Below are positions 2,337 through 15,382 of a DNA stretch of 36,324 nt, one piece after another (within the stretch, counting starts at the first letter, position 1; each line of letters begins with the position of its first letter). A program made the translations under genes and the position numbers. The notes under the pieces are model-generated. The model saw only the letters and a program-made list of their open reading frames with translations. It was not told the DNA's origin and did no database searches. Source of the stretch: Candidatus Saccharimonadota bacterium (GTDB lineage: Bacteria; Patescibacteriota; Doudnabacteria; UBA920; O2-02-FULL-48-8); contig JBLMZV010000029.1 of assembly GCA_050259015.1 (NCBI GenBank), positions 1 through 36,324 on the forward strand. The letters run 5' to 3'.

Positions 2337-4127
2337 ATGAACAACAATACAATCGAATGGGACTTGTCGGGACTCTATTCCGGCCCGCATGATCCCAAAG
2401 TTACCCGGGATACAGCCTCCGCCAACAGACTGGCGGATGATTTTGTCAGCCTCTATCGGGGCAATATCGGCGAAAAAACCGCGCCGACTCAGCTTCGCGA
2501 CGCGCTTAAGCGGCTGGAAAAGATCCTGGAACAGGCGGCCAGGCCGGAAATGTACGCCAGTCTGCTGTTTTCGACTGACGTGAATAACCAAGCCTTCGGC
2601 GCTTTGCTGAACGGGACAACGGACGCTTACGTCCAAATCAGCAAGAAGCTGCTGTTTTTCGAACTTGATCTGGCGAAGCTCAGCGAAAAAACCCTTAACA
2701 GGTTCGCGTCCGACCCGTCGCTTAAGAACTACCGCCACTTCATCCTGCGCCAGATCGATTACAAGAAACACCGCCTGACGGAACCGGAAGAGAAGCTATT
2801 GGCCGACAAGGACCAGACCAGCAAGGCGGCTTTCGCCAGGCTGTTCGAGCAACTTATTTCCTCCAAAAAATTTCTCTTCCGCAAAAATTCGAAAAAGGAA
2901 ATAACGCTTTCCGAAACCGAGATCCTGGACCTGCTGCACAACCCCGACCGGGAAACCAGAAAGGCGGCAGCCAGGGATTTTACGCTGGGCCTCAAGGATG
3001 AAGTACCCAAACTCAGTTTTATTTACAACACTCTGGGCTTCGACAAGAAGATCAACGATGGCTACCGCAAGTTCGAAAATCCGGAGGACTCCAGGCACCT
3101 CGACAACGAGGTCACCACGGAAGCGGTGGATGCTCTTGTCGGCTCCGTCACGAAAAACTACGGAATGGTCGCGGATTATTACCGGTTCAAAGCCAAGACG
3201 CTCCAGGTCGGAAAACTTAAGGACTACGACAGGTATGCGCCGACCGCGAAATCTTCCGTAAAAATCCCGTTCGTGAAAGGCAAAGACATCATTCTGGACG
3301 CCTTCGGCGAATTCGATCCCGAATTCAGATCGATAGCCAAAGAATTCTTCGACAGTCGGTGGATCCATGCCTCGCTCAAGCCAGGGAAGCGCGGGGGCGC
3401 CTACTGTTCTTATCTGACCCCGAGCCTTCACCCTTACGTATTCGTCAACTATCAGGACAAAATAGCCGACGTCGAGACGCTTGCCCACGAATTGGGACAC
3501 GCCATCCATGGATACCTGATGCGATCACAGACGCTTTTGAATTTCGACTCACCGCTGACCCTGGCTGAAACCGCCAGCGTTTTCGCGGAGATGATCGTCT
3601 TCGATTACCTTAAACAATCACTCCCACCCAAAGAGCGCCTGGCGCTTTTGATGCGCACCATCGAAGGCCTCATCGCCAGCGTTTTCCGGCAGATCGCGAT
3701 GTTCCAGTTTGAGCGCGATTTCCATGCTCTGCGCAGAAACGGAGAGATTACGCACGAAAAAATCAGCGAACTCTGGCTCAACAGACAAAAGGAGATGTTC
3801 AAAGGATCCATCGAGCTGACACCTGATTATGCCCTCTGGTGGTCCTACATCCCGCATTTCTTCGAAACTCCATTTTACGTGTATGCGTACGCTTTCGGCC
3901 AGCTTCTGACCATGTCACTCTATGAACGGCGCAACGAGCCTGGATTCAAGCTTAAATACAAGGATTTTCTCAGGTCCGGGGGGAGTAAGTCACCGCGGGA
4001 GCTATTGGCCGGCCTGGGCGTGGATACGGCAGATCCGGATTTCTGGCAAAACGGCCTCAACCTCATAGGAAAGATGGTAGCTGAGGCGAAAGAAACATAC
4101 GCAAGCCTAAAGGCAGACCGGCGGTAA
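2337..4127 (+). CDS. M3 family oligoendopeptidase (PepF-like)
   Basis: N-terminal WDLSGLY, GKRGGAYC, zinc motif HELGH, LAETAS, FYVYAYAFG. Confidence 0.93.
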   Translation: MNNNTIEWDLSGLYSGPHDPKVTRDTASANRLADDFVSLYRGNIGEKTAPTQLRDALKRLEKILEQAARPEMYASLLFSTDVNNQAFGALLNGTTDAYVQISKKLLFFELDLAKLSEKTLNRFASDPSLKNYRHFILRQIDYKKHRLTEPEEKLLADKDQTSKAAFARLFEQLISSKKFLFRKNSKKEITLSETEILDLLHNPDRETRKAAARDFTLGLKDEVPKLSFIYNTLGFDKKINDGYRKFENPEDSRHLDNEVTTEAVDALVGSVTKNYGMVADYYRFKAKTLQVGKLKDYDRYAPTAKSSVKIPFVKGKDIILDAFGEFDPEFRSIAKEFFDSRWIHASLKPGKRGGAYCSYLTPSLHPYVFVNYQDKIADVETLAHELGHAIHGYLMRSQTLLNFDSPLTLAETASVFAEMIVFDYLKQSLPPKERLALLMRTIEGLIASVFRQIAMFQFERDFHALRRNGEITHEKISELWLNRQKEMFKGSIELTPDYALWWSYIPHFFETPFYVYAYAFGQLLTMSLYERRNEPGFKLKYKDFLRSGGSKSPRELLAGLGVDTADPDFWQNGLNLIGKMVAEAKETYASLKADRR

Positions 4128-4150
4128 GATATCGCTTATGCCGGAATCCT

Positions 4151-4178
4151 TTGTATTTTCTCCGGAAAATGTTATAAT
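4151..4178 (+). promoter_or_regulatory. sigma70-type promoter (extended -10) for the tRNA-Thr locus
   Basis: TTGTAT-16 nt-TATAAT with TG at the extended -10 position. Confidence 0.65.
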
Positions 4179-4191
4179 TAGAGCACTTTTC

Positions 4192-4361
4192 GCCGACGCA
4201 GCTCAATTGGCCCACCTGCCCGTCCCTGGGTGCCGAGATAGCTCAATTGGTAGAGCAGCGGTATCGTAAACCGCAGGTTGGAGGTTCAAGTCCTCTTCTC
4301 GGCTCCAGGGATCGGCGGGTGTGCAACGGCATCGAGCCGGTCCGATTCCGATTGTCTGCCA
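4192..4361 (+). pseudogene. Degenerate tRNA-like shell (5' part 4192-4212, 3' part 4321-4361) interrupted by an insert carrying tRNA-Thr
   Basis: GCCGACG-CA-GCTCAATTGG at the 5' side; GTGC-A-ACGGC-ATCG..GCCGG-TCCGATT-CCGAT-TGTCTGC-CA at the 3' side; acceptor stem pairs 6 of 7. Confidence 0.6.
4232..4307 (+). tRNA. tRNA-Thr(CGT)
   Basis: Acceptor GCCGAGA/TCTCGGC, anticodon arm GCGGT-ATCGTAA-ACCGC, T-loop TTCAAGT, U73, encoded CCA; 76 nt. Confidence 0.95.
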
Positions 4362-4391
4362 GAAAAGTCAAGGGGTCCAAAAAAGGCCGTC

Positions 4392-4420
4392 TTGCCAATC
4401 CGGGCTTTTTTTGTTAGTAT
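4392..4420 (+). promoter_or_regulatory. Promoter of the atp operon, overlapping a terminator-like hairpin of the tRNA unit
   Basis: TTGCCA-17 nt-TAGTAT, 21 nt before the ATG at 4442. Confidence 0.55.
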
Positions 4421-4441
4421 TTTTCCGGTCGTTTTAAAAAA

Positions 4442-4675
4442 ATGGACAACCCTGCCAAGAAAACTCCGACTCCGGTCGACAAATGGCGCATGGTCGGCCT
4501 CAGCATGGAGCTGGGCTTCATAATCGCCCTGCCCCTACTGATCTTCAGCCTGCTCGGCAAATACCTGGATAACCGCTGGCATACAGCGCCCTGGCTGACC
4601 CTGGCGGGTATCCTCATCGCCATCGCATCAACCACAATCTGGCTTATTCAACGCATTAAGGAGATGATGAAATGA
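4442..4675 (+). CDS. AtpZ/AtpI family protein (putative Fo-associated subunit)
   Basis: Two TM helices with the LGKYLD...HTAPW motif; first gene of the atp operon. Confidence 0.85.
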   Translation: MDNPAKKTPTPVDKWRMVGLSMELGFIIALPLLIFSLLGKYLDNRWHTAPWLTLAGILIAIASTTIWLIQRIKEMMK

Positions 4676-6835: not shown

Positions 6836-8335
6836 ATGAAAGATAACATCCTTGCTGCGCTGAAAAGCCGAATAGACGAATTCCAGACCTCGACGAAGGC
6901 CGAGAGCGTCGGAAAAGTCCTCCACATAGGCGACGGAATCGCCACCATCTCGGGACTATCGGGGGCCCAAGCCTCGGAAATGCTCGAATTTCCCGGCAAC
7001 GTCTTCGGCGTCGCCCTGAACCTCGAAGAAGACACGATCGGAGCGGTATTGCTCGGCGAATACAGCCACATCAAGCAGGGGGATACCGTAAAGTCCACCG
7101 GCAAGATCCTTTCCGTCCCCGTAGGCGACTCCCTGATCGGCCGCGTCATCAGCCCCTTGGGCGAACCCTTGGACAACAAAGGCCCGATAAAATCCGAAAC
7201 CTACTATCCGGTGGAAAAAATCGCTCCCGGCGTCATCGCCCGGCAGGGCGTCAATCAGCCGCTGCAGACCGGCATTAAGGCGATCGACGCTTTGATTCCG
7301 ATCGGTAAGGGACAGCGCGAATTGATCATCGGCGACCGTCAGACAGGCAAAACAGCCGTTGCCATCGATACCATCATCAACCAGAAGGGCAAGGATGTCA
7401 TCTGCATCTACGTGGCCATCGGACAGAAAGAATCCAAGGTAGCCCGCATCATGGGCGAACTGAACAAGCATGATGCCATGAGCCACACCATCATCGTCGT
7501 GGCCGGGGCCTCCGATCCGGCGGCACTGTCCTACATCGCTCCGTTCGCGGGCTGCGCGATGGGGGAGTACTTTATGGATCACGGCAAGCATGTGCTGATC
7601 ATTTACGATGATCTTTCCAAACACGCGGTCGCTTACCGCGAAATTTCCCTGCTGCTTCGGAGACCGCCGGGGCGTGAAGCCTATCCCGGAGACGTTTTTT
7701 ATCTCCATTCCCGGCTTTTGGAACGCGCCGCGAAAATGAACGATTCCCTGGGAGGCGGGTCCCTGACAGCCCTTCCGATCATCGAAACCCAGGCCGGCGA
7801 CATTTCCGCCTACATTCCGACAAACGTGATTTCCATCACCGACGGCCAGATCTTCCTGGAATCCGACCTGTTTTACCAGGGTATCCGCCCGGCGTTGAAC
7901 GTCGGCCTGTCGGTGTCACGCGTCGGTTCCGCGGCTCAGATCAAGGCCATCAAGAAAGTTGCGGGACGCCTGAAGCTTGATTTGGCGCAATTCCGGGAAC
8001 TGGCCGCTTTCGCCCAGTTCGCCTCCGACCTAGACTCCAAGACCAAGGCCCAGATCGAACGGGGCCAGCGCATCACGGAAGTTCTGAAACAGGGCCAGTA
8101 CCAGCCGATGCCCGTCGAGAACCAGGTCGCGATCCTTTACGCCGTAGTCAACGGCTATCTGGACGACGTGCCGGTGGACAACGTAAGCGCCTGGGAAACA
8201 GATTTCCACCGTTTCTTCAACGTCCAGTACAGGGATCTTTTAAACCGCATCGCGAACGAGAAAGAACTTAAGGATGACATCGAGGCTAAGCTAAAAGCCA
8301 GCATCGAAGAATTCAAGAAGAGTCATGGCGAATAA
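6836..8335 (+). CDS. atpA: F0F1 ATP synthase subunit alpha
   Basis: GDRQTGKT Walker [24 protein letters not shown]. Confidence 0.99.
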
Positions 8336-14390: not shown

Positions 14391-14465
14391 CGCGGGGTAG
14401 AGAAATGGCATCTCGCAAGGCTCATAACCTTGAGATTGGCGGTTCGAGTCCGCCCCCCGCAACCA
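14391..14465 (+). tRNA. Initiator tRNA-fMet(CAT)
   Basis: C1:A72 mismatch, CGCGGGG acceptor, A11-U24, anticodon loop CTCATAA, encoded CCA. Confidence 0.93.
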
Positions 14466-14517
14466 AAGCAATCAAACGGCTTAGGTAGGCCAAAAGCCGG
14501 CCTAAGCCGGTTCTTAA

Positions 14518-14593
14518 GCCAGGGTAGCTCAGTTGGCAGAGCGTGGGACTCATAAGCCCGAGGTCGTGGGTTCGATCCCCACCCCTGGTACCA
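14518..14593 (+). tRNA. tRNA with CAT anticodon, probably elongator Met (Ile2 not excluded)
   Basis: Acceptor GCCAGGG/CCCTGGT, arm TGGGA-CTCATAA-GCCCG, T-loop TTCGATC, encoded CCA. Confidence 0.88.
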
Positions 14594-14725
14594 AGAAACG
14601 GCTGTGAGTTTTCAAGTACGATTTGAAGTGCATGCGGGGTCTAACCAGCACTTCAAATTGAAAGGAGCAACACGTCGGCCGTAGCAACCGCGGTGCGGTT
14701 GCGAAGGTCCGACAAGTTGCGACGT

Positions 14726-14804
14726 GCTCGCGTGGTGTAGCCCGGTCTAACACGTCTCCCTGTCACGGAGAAGACCACGGGTTCAAATCCCGTCGCGAGC
14801 GCCA
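14726..14804 (+). tRNA. tRNA-Asp(GTC)
   Basis: Acceptor GCTCGCG/CGCGAGC, arm TCTCC-CTGTCAC-GGAGA, G73, encoded CCA. Confidence 0.95.
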
Positions 14805-14890: not shown

Positions 14891-15382
14891 TCAGCGGACG
14901 CCTGGGCAGGGACAGCCGACGTATTCGATACTGCTTGCCACCGGGTACGCGACAGCCTTCGCGGCCTGTCTCCGGAACGTCGTAGCCCTTGTCCTGAGAA
15001 TCCGATTGCTGGCCCGGACTGACTTGTTCTCGCCGTCCAAACGGGCGTTGTCCTTGGCCAGCGCGACGCGCTCATTATCAGCGGCCGCGAGACTCTTCAC
15101 AAGCTCGGTATTCTGGTTGATCAGCTGCCCGTTGTTCTCGGCGGTCTTGAACGCCAGCACCCGGAAGTCGGCATAAGCCTGCTCCGCGGTGAGCGCAACC
15201 GGCTTTGCTGCGACGGCCCCGGCAGGTCTGGCCCCCGGCCACGACCAGGTCTGAACGACGCTCTTGGCCGGCTTCCCCCAAAGCCAGGGCTTGACCACCC
15301 AGAAAAACAGAAACAGCACGATCACGAGTCCGGCAAGAGCCCCAAGCGTCTGGTTTCGGCTCAGCCTCCTGAATCTCGCCAT
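14891..15382 (-). CDS. Hypothetical membrane-anchored coiled-coil protein
   Basis: SD AAGGAGG before the ATG at 15382; basic N-terminus, one TM helix, heptad-like region, C-terminal CPCP; followed by a terminator. Confidence 0.65.
   Translation of the reverse strand: MARFRRLSRNQTLGALAGLVIVLFLFFWVVKPWLWGKPAKSVVQTWSWPGARPAGAVAAKPVALTAEQAYADFRVLAFKTAENNGQLINQNTELVKSLAAADNERVALAKDNARLDGENKSVRASNRILRTRATTFRRQAAKAVAYPVASSIEYVGCPCPGVR

Follow-up and report, generated by a model that had tools for sequence, protein, structure and literature searches.

The stretch of DNA analysed here (hereafter the window) is the 36,324-nucleotide contig JBLMZV010000029.1 of a Candidatus Saccharimonadota bacterium, whose genome of 0.88 Mb is assembled in 78 contigs and is 99.7% complete. 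Between an M3 oligopeptidase gene and the atp operon, the window holds an intact tRNA-Thr(CGT) gene lying inside a second, broken tRNA gene, and we refer to such an arrangement as a nest (Table 1). A cognate tRNA bounded by a clamp of two complementary arms has been inserted here into an older tRNA gene; such insertions are site-specific and recurrent, and the old gene decays. Genomes, contigs and nest loci are denoted below by G, C and L numbers, G000 being the genome that holds the window and C29 its contig.

The nested locus upstream of the atp operon

Table 1. Features of the nested tRNA locus and its surroundings in the window
Feature	Position	Strand	Basis and remarks
M3 oligopeptidase gene	2337-4127		flanking gene on one side
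Probable promoter of the outer (dead) gene	4151-4178	+	TTGTAT 4151-4156, 16-nt spacer, TG-n-TATAAT 4170-4178; direct reading
Outer tRNA-Thr 5' relic	4192-4212	+	acceptor 5' strand 4192-4198, then 5' part of the D-arm
Insert left arm (clamp)	4213-4231	+	diverged copy of the family motif CCTGCCCGCC plus spacer
Inner tRNA-Thr(CGT), the cargo	4232-4307	+	encoded CCA; aragorn call, Rfam RF00005 match
Insert right arm (clamp)	4305-4321	+	pairs with 4213-4229, CCA included; diverged from the family motif GGCAGGCGGG
Outer tRNA 3' relic	4322-4361	+	end of the D-stem onward; direct reading and alignment to the inner tRNA
Promoter-like stretch 5' of the atp operon	4392-4420		TTGCCA, 17 nt, TAGTAT, with TG before the second hexamer
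atp operon	from 4442		flanking operon on the other side

All the elements of a tRNA inside a tRNA that an initial annotation had described from the letters alone were found in place by direct reading, aragorn and Rfam. The outer 5' end reads GCCGACG-CA-GCTCAATTGG (4192-4210) and has the 11-nt stretch AGCTCAATTGG in common with the inner tRNA at 100%; a match in the relative G027, 81% identical, spans the outer 5' part together with the left arm. The left arm comprises CACCTGCC (4213-4220) and TCCCTGG (4223-4229), and the right arm comprises CCAGGGA (4305-4311), which uses the encoded CCA, and GGCGGGTG (4314-4321). The inner gene matches RF00005 at 68.9 bits over model positions 1-71 (gathering cut-off 29 bits), and it is the sole Thr-CGT gene that aragorn and Rfam found in G000. 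The insert is 109 nt long with just 33 nt outside the tRNA, its ends form an inverted repeat, and no open reading frame (ORF) was found in it (4213-4321).

The 3' relic holds the 5' strand of the anticodon stem with the start of the anticodon loop (4323-4334), a degenerate T-arm (4336-4352) and the acceptor 3' strand TGTCTGC (4353-4359), which by direct reading pairs with 4192-4198 at 6 of 7 positions (5 Watson-Crick pairs, 1 G-U pair and 1 C/T mismatch). The outer shell had been estimated to be 12-14 nt short in the anticodon/variable region, and its alignment to the inner tRNA agrees with about 14 nt missing: the 3' strand of the anticodon stem and the variable loop are gone, and CAG stands where CCA is expected. 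The same alignment to Thr-CGT keeps the anticodon-stem 5' strand and the ..ATCG of the loop. The break had been placed in the D-loop, which is right as to the D-arm but not as to the D-loop proper, since homology within the family described below puts it in the 3' strand of the D-stem.

When joined, the two outer halves align to the inner tRNA with a score of 45.5, compared with 18.4 +/- 4.3 for 1000 shuffles (z=6.3, none reaching it); among 1000 random 64-nt pieces of the window 3 reach this score. No tRNA was called by aragorn on the joined halves, even with a lowered threshold, so that what is left is their pairwise likeness to the inner tRNA.

The region 4185-4365 is predicted to fold at -82.2 kcal/mol (z=-4.3, with none of 200 shuffles as good). 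The predicted minimum-free-energy fold shows the inner cloverleaf with two clamp helices stacked on its acceptor stem, and it is without a tRNA-like outer acceptor stem. By itself the clamp, with 16 pairs that include 2 G-U pairs and flank a single C/C mismatch, comes to -31.2 kcal/mol, a value not reached by any of 2000 random pairs of window pieces with equal lengths and spacing, whose minimum is -19.3. The CCA at 4305-4307 pairs with TGG at 4227-4229, and the predicted helix runs continuously through the 7 bp of the acceptor stem and the 16-17 bp of the clamp.

The TATAAT box of the probable outer promoter (4173-4178, with TG at 4170-4171 ahead of it) lies 13 nt from position 4192 by direct reading. 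It was left uncalled in a consensus promoter scan because its -35 hexamer is weak, and the only call of that scan is the atp promoter (4392-4420), a stretch that is kept in several relatives 3' of their Thr-CGT gene. Relatives also share the layout of the outer promoter, with a TATAAT-like box 10-25 nt 5' of the outer tRNA start. An Rfam cmscan of 4100-4450 gave the inner tRNA only, with no intron or ribozyme family at E up to 10. Matches to SNORD89, Plastid-ycf2 and Thr_leader near the locus were set aside as chance matches (E 0.68-2.6, far under their gathering scores).

Misassembly is unlikely because public runs yield contigs across each of the two junctions. In run X1, possibly the source sample, one contig matches 4147-4270 with 0 differences, and a second contig, belonging to a different study, extends over 4247-4474 and departs from the window by 5 differences and 1 indel. 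In four RNA runs at most 0.05 of the sampled words are present. The contigs of RNA run X11 cover only the conserved tRNA core (4230-4308) and their loose ends are unlike the window, so that they come from other organisms.

A family of nests with shared arms

We compared the Thr-CGT genes of 25 genomes of the same order, the window's included. The tRNA calls in relatives are by aragorn alone, and all genomes other than G000 are metagenome bins. A 5' relic lies directly upstream of the gene in 7 of the 25. The insertion site is the D-arm in G000, G027 and G037, the anticodon loop in G009, G018 and G038, and the variable loop in G012. The duplex between leader and trailer ranges from -28 to -46 kcal/mol in the 7 nested genes versus -4 to -20 in the 18 unnested ones, and therefore the helix comes with the nest and is no general feature of tRNA precursors in these bacteria. 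The encoded CCA is missing in 3 of the 7 nested inner genes and present in all 18 unnested genes. Upstream of the atp operon, two Thr-CGT alleles that differ in their anticodon stems are found nested both ways round: in G009 (L006) one allele lies within a nearly complete copy of the second, while in G018 (L030) the order is reversed and there are three layers. At the peptidase/atp locus of other relatives either allele may be found, unnested.

The left arm CCTGCCCGCC occurs in the window in diverged form and in G027, G032, G033 and G037; the right arm GGCAGGCGGG, followed by GCAG or GCAA, occurs in G027, G032 and G037, and G033 is without it. The right-arm pattern, allowing one mismatch, has 35 matches in 41 relatives versus 4 for the reversed control. 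Immediately upstream of the match, 7 of 30 such loci examined have both a left arm and a tRNA, with Thr, Lys, Ile, Gly and Arg as cargos, and the tRNA is on the other strand in 4 of these 7.

We also scanned 185,579 species, one genome each, for the pattern of a left arm, 82-112 nt and a right arm. This gave 63 loci, 17 of them with a tRNA between the arms. All 17 have a GC content of 0.36-0.55, and the record titles of 14 name lineages of the candidate phyla radiation (CPR) or Patescibacteria. Of the remaining 46 loci, 42 have a GC content of at least 0.62 and were taken as chance matches. The left junction AGACCTGCCCGCC has 43 matches in 27 of 401 genomes of the phylum, compared with 4 for the control; one match lies in an unpublished genome and was left out of later steps. 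A tRNA starts 16-30 nt after this junction at 10 of 30 sites examined. Altogether 25 distinct nests with CCTGCCCGCC ... GGCAGGCGGG arms were collected from small-genome, mostly CPR-labelled bacteria; they are related to one another, and their counts are not counts of independent events.

The junction reads ..AGA, insert, GCAG or GCAA, or a close variant of this, in 24 of the 25 nests, L132 (..GGG) being the exception. The insertion point is between nt 23 and 24 of the outer D-stem, with neither target duplication nor loss of target bases. In silico removal of the inserts renders 11 of the 25 outer genes callable by aragorn, and every one of the 11 carries the anticodon of its cargo (Thr-CGT in six cases, and Thr-GGT, Thr-TGT, Ala-GGC, Lys-TTT and Arg-CCT). 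These nests, with their same arms and same position in the D-arm, support the first of two origins offered in the initial annotation, namely that an old tRNA-Thr(CGT) gene was disrupted by a hairpin-bounded insert bringing a replacement of the same identity.

The cargo in the family of the window is, as judged by sequence, foreign to its shell. Across the first 23 nt it is about 0.77 identical to its own outer gene, a value equal to that between genomes. In L156 the changes between inner and outer tRNA compensate one another within the acceptor and T stems, and so the two copies evolved apart as working tRNAs before nesting. The arms and spacers are kept whether the cargo is Thr, Lys, Arg or Ala, and in many families of the phylum.

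These comparisons mark the copy in the window as an old and eroded representative of the family. The outer D-arm has GGCC in place of the family's GGTAGA, and the left arm (4215-4225) is CCTGCCCGTCC, one T more than the motif. Of the right arm only GGCGGG (4314-4319) is left; GGCA is gone and TGT stands before GCAACGG, which is consistent with erosion. The register of the helix is shifted relative to the family, and the helix is still fully paired, with its outermost three pairs off the family consensus register.

Some nests have been interrupted again. Many outer shells, such as those of L197, L205, L116, L131 and L136, have an additional small insert, namely a CCGCC-NNNN-GGCGG hairpin that replaces the anticodon. 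In G027 (C2, ~7480-7960; L183/L213) a Thr-GGT nest has the family arms, and its innermost tRNA is broken after anticodon-loop position 37 by 191 nt according to the intron mode of aragorn. Rfam gave no match to this 191-nt insert at E up to 0.01. In a DNA search of G027, which is 98% complete, no other Thr-GGT-like gene turned up, and therefore the 191 nt may have to leave the RNA.

Could the insert in the window be an intron, spliced from the outer tRNA in the archaeal or the self-splicing manner, so that one transcript yields two tRNAs? The inserts do lie in loops and at stem ends, the helix joins the ends as in archaeal introns at non-canonical positions, and the 11 outer genes named above are intact after exact removal of the insert. 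We nevertheless find this scarcely credible. The tRNA-splicing endonuclease (PF01974) and RtcB (PF01139) have 0 matches each in the nearly complete G000, while control genomes gave matches, and no ribozyme family was matched. The outer tRNA of the window has lost its anticodon arm and CCA, and it would be non-functional even if joined. A group I intron in particular had been judged a poor fit from the start, and the insertion in the D-arm agrees with that judgement, as does the cmscan result above.

The second origin offered in the initial annotation was a nested precursor that controls maturation. In this explanation the shell and the helix are a selected device in which the CCA is buried and by which the processing of tRNA-Thr(CGT) is regulated or made possible. 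It would account for a helix that is still strong (16 bp, -31.2 kcal/mol) despite a decayed shell and whose outermost three pairs lie off the family register, and RNase III is encoded in the genome. In a comparison over 26 nests, bearing on whether the helix acts as RNA or as DNA, the sense helix is also slightly stabler than the antisense one (-27.7 versus -26.3 kcal/mol, with the sense helix stabler in 18 of the 26), although this gap is small, the sequences are related and the G-U counts are similar (43/387 in sense and 34/379 in antisense). The distribution speaks against such a device: the nest is sporadic, being present at 7 of the 25 Thr-CGT genes, with insertion sites that differ, and the unnested genes do without a comparable helix. 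Nor is the outer shell conserved, that of the window having lost its anticodon arm. As an origin of the nest we consider the device quite unlikely.

Other nests and tRNA relics in the same genome

We found 41 tRNA genes in G000 by aragorn, all with an encoded CCA and with one each of Thr-GGT, Thr-TGT and Thr-CGT, and 42 tRNA matches by Rfam, one of which is weak (C76:5107-5172, 28.5 bits). Among these no gene was seen for tRNA-Gln with either anticodon, Lys-TTT, Gly-TCC or Pro-TGG. The missing genes could be assembly gaps, or they could be genes interrupted beyond recognition.

The window does not hold the only nest of the genome. On the minus strand of C17 (~15040-15290) a tRNA-Val(TAC) lies within the D-loop of a second Val-TAC-like cloverleaf, which has a perfect 7-bp acceptor stem and CCA, and hairpin inserts in its anticodon loop and before its acceptor 3' strand; among the genes of G000, its 5' end is closest in sequence to Val-CAC. 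On the same strand of C17 (~7400-7800) there is a three-layer tRNA-Pro(CGG), in which the intact gene lies in the anticodon loop of a split copy with a third shell outside. The 5' and 3' halves of the second layer are 100% identical to the intact gene (20 and 41 nt), and the third shell is more decayed. Layers 2 and 3 bear hairpins that differ from each other at one shared D-loop position, and leaders and trailers are homologous among the layers. The Ala-CGC gene lies within a shell that bears hairpins in its T-loop.

There are also shadows of 3' ends. The genes for Glu-TTC, Asn-GTT, Leu-CAG, Arg-TCG and Ala-GGC are each followed by copies of their own 3' part, and for Glu-TTC, Asn-GTT and Ala-GGC these are exact copies of the last 13-22 nt, 30-175 nt downstream. 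Overall, 7 of the 11 places in G000 with tRNA fragments outside called genes have a tRNA gene of matching amino acid no more than 175 nt away. A motif of ~27 nt with CCCGCTTTAGCGGTG has exactly 2 copies in the genome (C8 ~9910 and C48 ~10530), both of them inside downstream tRNA relics (Leu-CAG and Arg-TCG), between the T-arm and acceptor relics.

Taken alone, the 13-22 nt copies after Glu-TTC, Asn-GTT and Ala-GGC resemble remnants of attR, the kind of trace expected if an integrative element with a tyrosine or serine recombinase had entered a tRNA gene and later been deleted. For the nest in the window such a scar of an attachment site (att) is very improbable. Its flanks are the 5' and the 3' part of a second tRNA, complementary to each other and without overlap, the 3' part is not directly repeated, a functional gene lies wholly within the insert, and the 109 nt have inverted-repeat ends and no coding capacity. 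The neighbours are the M3 peptidase gene and the atp operon. The early judgement that an integrase att duplication does not fit is thus borne out.

The Pro-CGG layers, with their identical halves and homologous leaders and trailers, bear on a different explanation, in which the nest arose in situ by local duplication, template switching or gene conversion at a palindrome in the resident gene, and no mobile element took part. The shared arms would then reflect a palindromic repeat that repeatedly seeds such events. A compact palindrome akin to the arms is indeed a dispersed repeat in the relatives: the perfect 20-nt palindrome CCTGCCTGCCGGCAGGCAGG was found 53 times, in 17 of 41 genomes and with at most 12 copies in any one of them, compared with 0 for the reversed control, and the arms of the family nests are a split variant of it. 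The lack of an ORF in every nest of the family also suits this explanation. It does not sit well with a cargo that is as unlike its own outer gene as it is unlike the cargo of other genomes, with the compensatory stem differences in L156, or with the conservation of arms and spacers across the Thr, Lys, Arg and Ala cargos and so many families of the phylum. We consider an in-situ origin of the window's nest unlikely.

Processing, spread and relation to known systems

In our view the locus is probably what a small non-coding "disrupt-and-replace" insertion has left behind, and we extend this reading to the putative processing of the cargo and to its arrival from elsewhere. The resident tRNA-Thr(CGT) gene between the M3 peptidase gene and the atp operon was split in its D-arm by the 109-nt insert, and the cassette would have arrived by horizontal transfer. 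The outer gene would then have eroded, with the loss of its anticodon arm, a degenerate T-loop and no CCA, while its promoter may still transcribe the unit. The inner tRNA could be matured from this precursor by ordinary bacterial enzymes. G000 encodes RNase P RNA, RNase III (domain score 143.5 bits) and an enzyme of the CCA-adding type, which makes ordinary maturation from the outer promoter plausible. The 16-bp helix of leader and trailer probably keeps the cargo folding apart from the look-alike 5' half of the outer tRNA, and the clamp may be an RNase III site. The spread of the cassette may be aided in trans by small GIY-YIG nucleases that recognise hairpins, like the Ssn proteins, and the assignment to these enzymes is the weakest step.

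Small GIY-YIG proteins of the Ssn type are site-specific nucleases that cut single-stranded DNA at flanking hairpin repeats named NTS/SRM, and the cleavage survives replacement or extension of the hairpin loop, according to excerpts of Chenal et al. (2025, PMC11893778). GIY-YIG matches number 1 to 14 per genome in the 41 genomes (G000 and 40 relatives), a count in which UvrC scores too, and the open frames listed are nearly all of 69-231 aa. Among the first 40 matches, 11 have a tRNA within the 1.6 kb fetched around them. The order of a 5' tRNA relic, a GIY-YIG ORF (84-111 aa) and an intact copy of the same tRNA was seen 5 times among the first 40 matches in relatives. GC palindromes of the CCGCC/GGCGG or CTGCC/GGCAG type occur in the D-loop of the relic in at least 4 of these 5 loci, and the CCGCC-NNNN-GGCGG palindrome of the re-interrupted shells is also found in relics beside GIY-YIG genes. 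One further locus has the ORF, a tRNA and then a hairpin-studded second copy. The palindrome CCTGCCTGCCGGCAGGCAGG or a near-perfect copy of it was found in 4 of 40 sampled GIY-YIG loci. From these arrangements a trans-acting small GIY-YIG nuclease appears plausible as the mobiliser.

A Y1 transposase (IS200/IS605 or RAYT type) was considered as mobiliser and rejected, as the presence of PF01797 does not track the nests. This domain was found in 16 of 41 relatives and not in the nest-bearing G000, G009, G027, G032 and G038; G037 has a broken fragment only (E=0.005). Carriage of the cassette by phages was likewise rejected, with 0 arm-tRNA-arm matches in viral contigs. Hairpins of the types CCGCC..GGCGG and CTGCC..GGCAG are not enriched near the tRNA genes of G000: 3 of 52 and 2 of 19, respectively, lie less than 250 nt from a tRNA, a zone that makes up 2.7% of the genome, and they are mostly terminators or inside genes.

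Several observations weigh against the disrupt-and-replace reading, above all against its mobile part. No recombinase, nuclease or any ORF was found in or beside the insert of the window, and no ORF lies between the arms of any of the 25 family nests. G000 has no copy of CCTGCCTGCCGGCAGGCAGG and only two small GIY-YIG genes (on C26 and C28), with no tRNA in the 1 kb read around each. The link to GIY-YIG genes rests on other clamp types and on motif likeness, and it is a lead, not proof. The cargo retains the target sequence TAGAGCAG, so that simple target-site immunity is not evident. All three genomes of genus g47 carry the left arm, and no pair of empty and filled sites within one species was seen. 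The exact arm-tRNA-arm pattern has, as said, no match on viral contigs. The 11 of 25 outer genes that are still intact may point to recent insertion or to selection on the outer gene, both being possible. The Pro-CGG nest, with its 100% identical halves and similar leaders, fits local duplication or gene conversion better than import.

A wider reading, which we hold only tentatively and rate as somewhat less than probable, is that Patescibacteria harbour mobile tRNA cassettes that are ORF-less and palindrome-armed, that exert a selfish drive on tRNA alleles, that are mobilised in trans and whose helix serves as an RNA insulator. Such a cassette would have the fixed D-arm target ..AGA/GCAG.., and its palindrome would have at the dyad a complete allele, of foreign origin, of the same tRNA that the cassette destroys. 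Ssn-like GIY-YIG nucleases might plausibly act on its hairpins in DNA that is taken up or replicated. The helix, doubling as an RNA insulator, would allow maturation of the cargo whichever host promoter drives it.

Integrative elements aimed at tRNA genes carry a partial copy by which the gene is restored, leaving att duplications, and Williams reportedly distinguished in 2002 sublocation classes of such elements within tRNA genes. The nest resembles them in the entry into a tRNA gene, in a tRNA function kept by imported sequence and in the old fragments left beside it. In contrast to them, the nest brings a complete tRNA, its old gene remains as two halves around the insert, it has neither recombinase nor element body, and its ends are an inverted repeat. 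Repetitive extragenic palindromes and their mosaics (REP/BIME) and miniature inverted-repeat transposable elements (MITEs) are likewise short, ORF-less and bounded by inverted repeats, and the compact palindrome is dispersed in the relatives in a similar way; the nest differs in carrying a functional gene at its centre, a fixed tRNA-gene target and always a cognate cargo, with no target-site duplication seen. In bacterial rRNA operons, stems of leader and trailer that enclose the stable RNA are substrates of RNase III. The helix of the nest similarly encloses a mature RNA in a genome that encodes RNase III, but it encloses one tRNA, occurs only at nested genes, and is made of a conserved repeat motif that is not locus-specific.

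SegB is a free-standing GIY-YIG homing endonuclease of the T4 tRNA gene cluster and is inherited preferentially with flanking tRNA sequence, as described in excerpts of PMC2330249. The common ground is a GIY-YIG gene among tRNA genes, as the relatives have small GIY-YIG ORFs between a 5' relic and an intact tRNA. The insert of the window is different in being ORF-less, in lying in a bacterial chromosome and not a phage, and in leaving the disrupted target as a shell. With the Ssn systems, as far as the excerpted report describes them, the relatives have in common small single-domain GIY-YIG proteins and flanking hairpin inverted repeats of 20-50 nt that are dispersed in the genome. The tolerance of Ssn cleavage to changes of the loop matches, by description, a tRNA at the dyad of a palindrome. 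The word tRNA occurs 0 times in PMC11893778, which sets that system apart from the nests. Archaea have disrupted tRNAs with non-canonical introns as well as split and tri-split tRNAs (Fujishima et al. 2009, 2010, as summarised in excerpts of PMC10714607). In these, too, several positions of the cloverleaf are affected, helices join the ends of exons and inserts behave as transposable units, so far as that summary goes. Unlike them, the nest has as its insert a working tRNA, the interrupted gene decays, and the splicing endonuclease and RtcB were not found in G000.

No description of tRNA-in-tRNA nests in CPR bacteria or of tRNA-carrying palindromic inserts was found in the full-text literature, with subscription journals and supplementary files outside the scope of the search, and a paper on rRNA insertions in the CPR (PMC11270868) has no occurrence of "tRNA". 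The recurrent invasion and replacement of tRNA genes is apparently undescribed. What is new here is a family of nests defined by its arms and its fixed insertion point, with a cognate cargo in 11 of 11 restored genes, a cargo that by its sequence is foreign to its shell, and the nest of the window as an eroded member.

Genes for tRNAs are among the most conserved and best annotated of all genes, and to our knowledge those of bacteria have been taken as uninterrupted apart from rare group I introns. In the ultra-small bacteria considered here, a cassette of ~110 nt with conserved arms and a fixed target has repeatedly disrupted single-copy, essential tRNA genes and taken their place from within. 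If mobile, this cassette would be among the smallest cargo-carrying elements that we know of, and it would offer a route for the horizontal replacement of tRNA alleles. The nests also matter for annotation, as shells and layers confuse tRNA finders and inflate the counts of pseudogenes. They provide a concrete substrate on which the function of small GIY-YIG nucleases and GC-rich palindromes can be studied, and their arms may provide a portable module by which a tRNA can be expressed as part of a foreign transcript.

Elsewhere in the window (14391-14804) there is a cluster of tRNA-Met, tRNA-Met and tRNA-Asp genes, and the spacer between the two tRNA-Met genes holds the GC-rich hairpin GGCTTAGG..CCTAAGCC.

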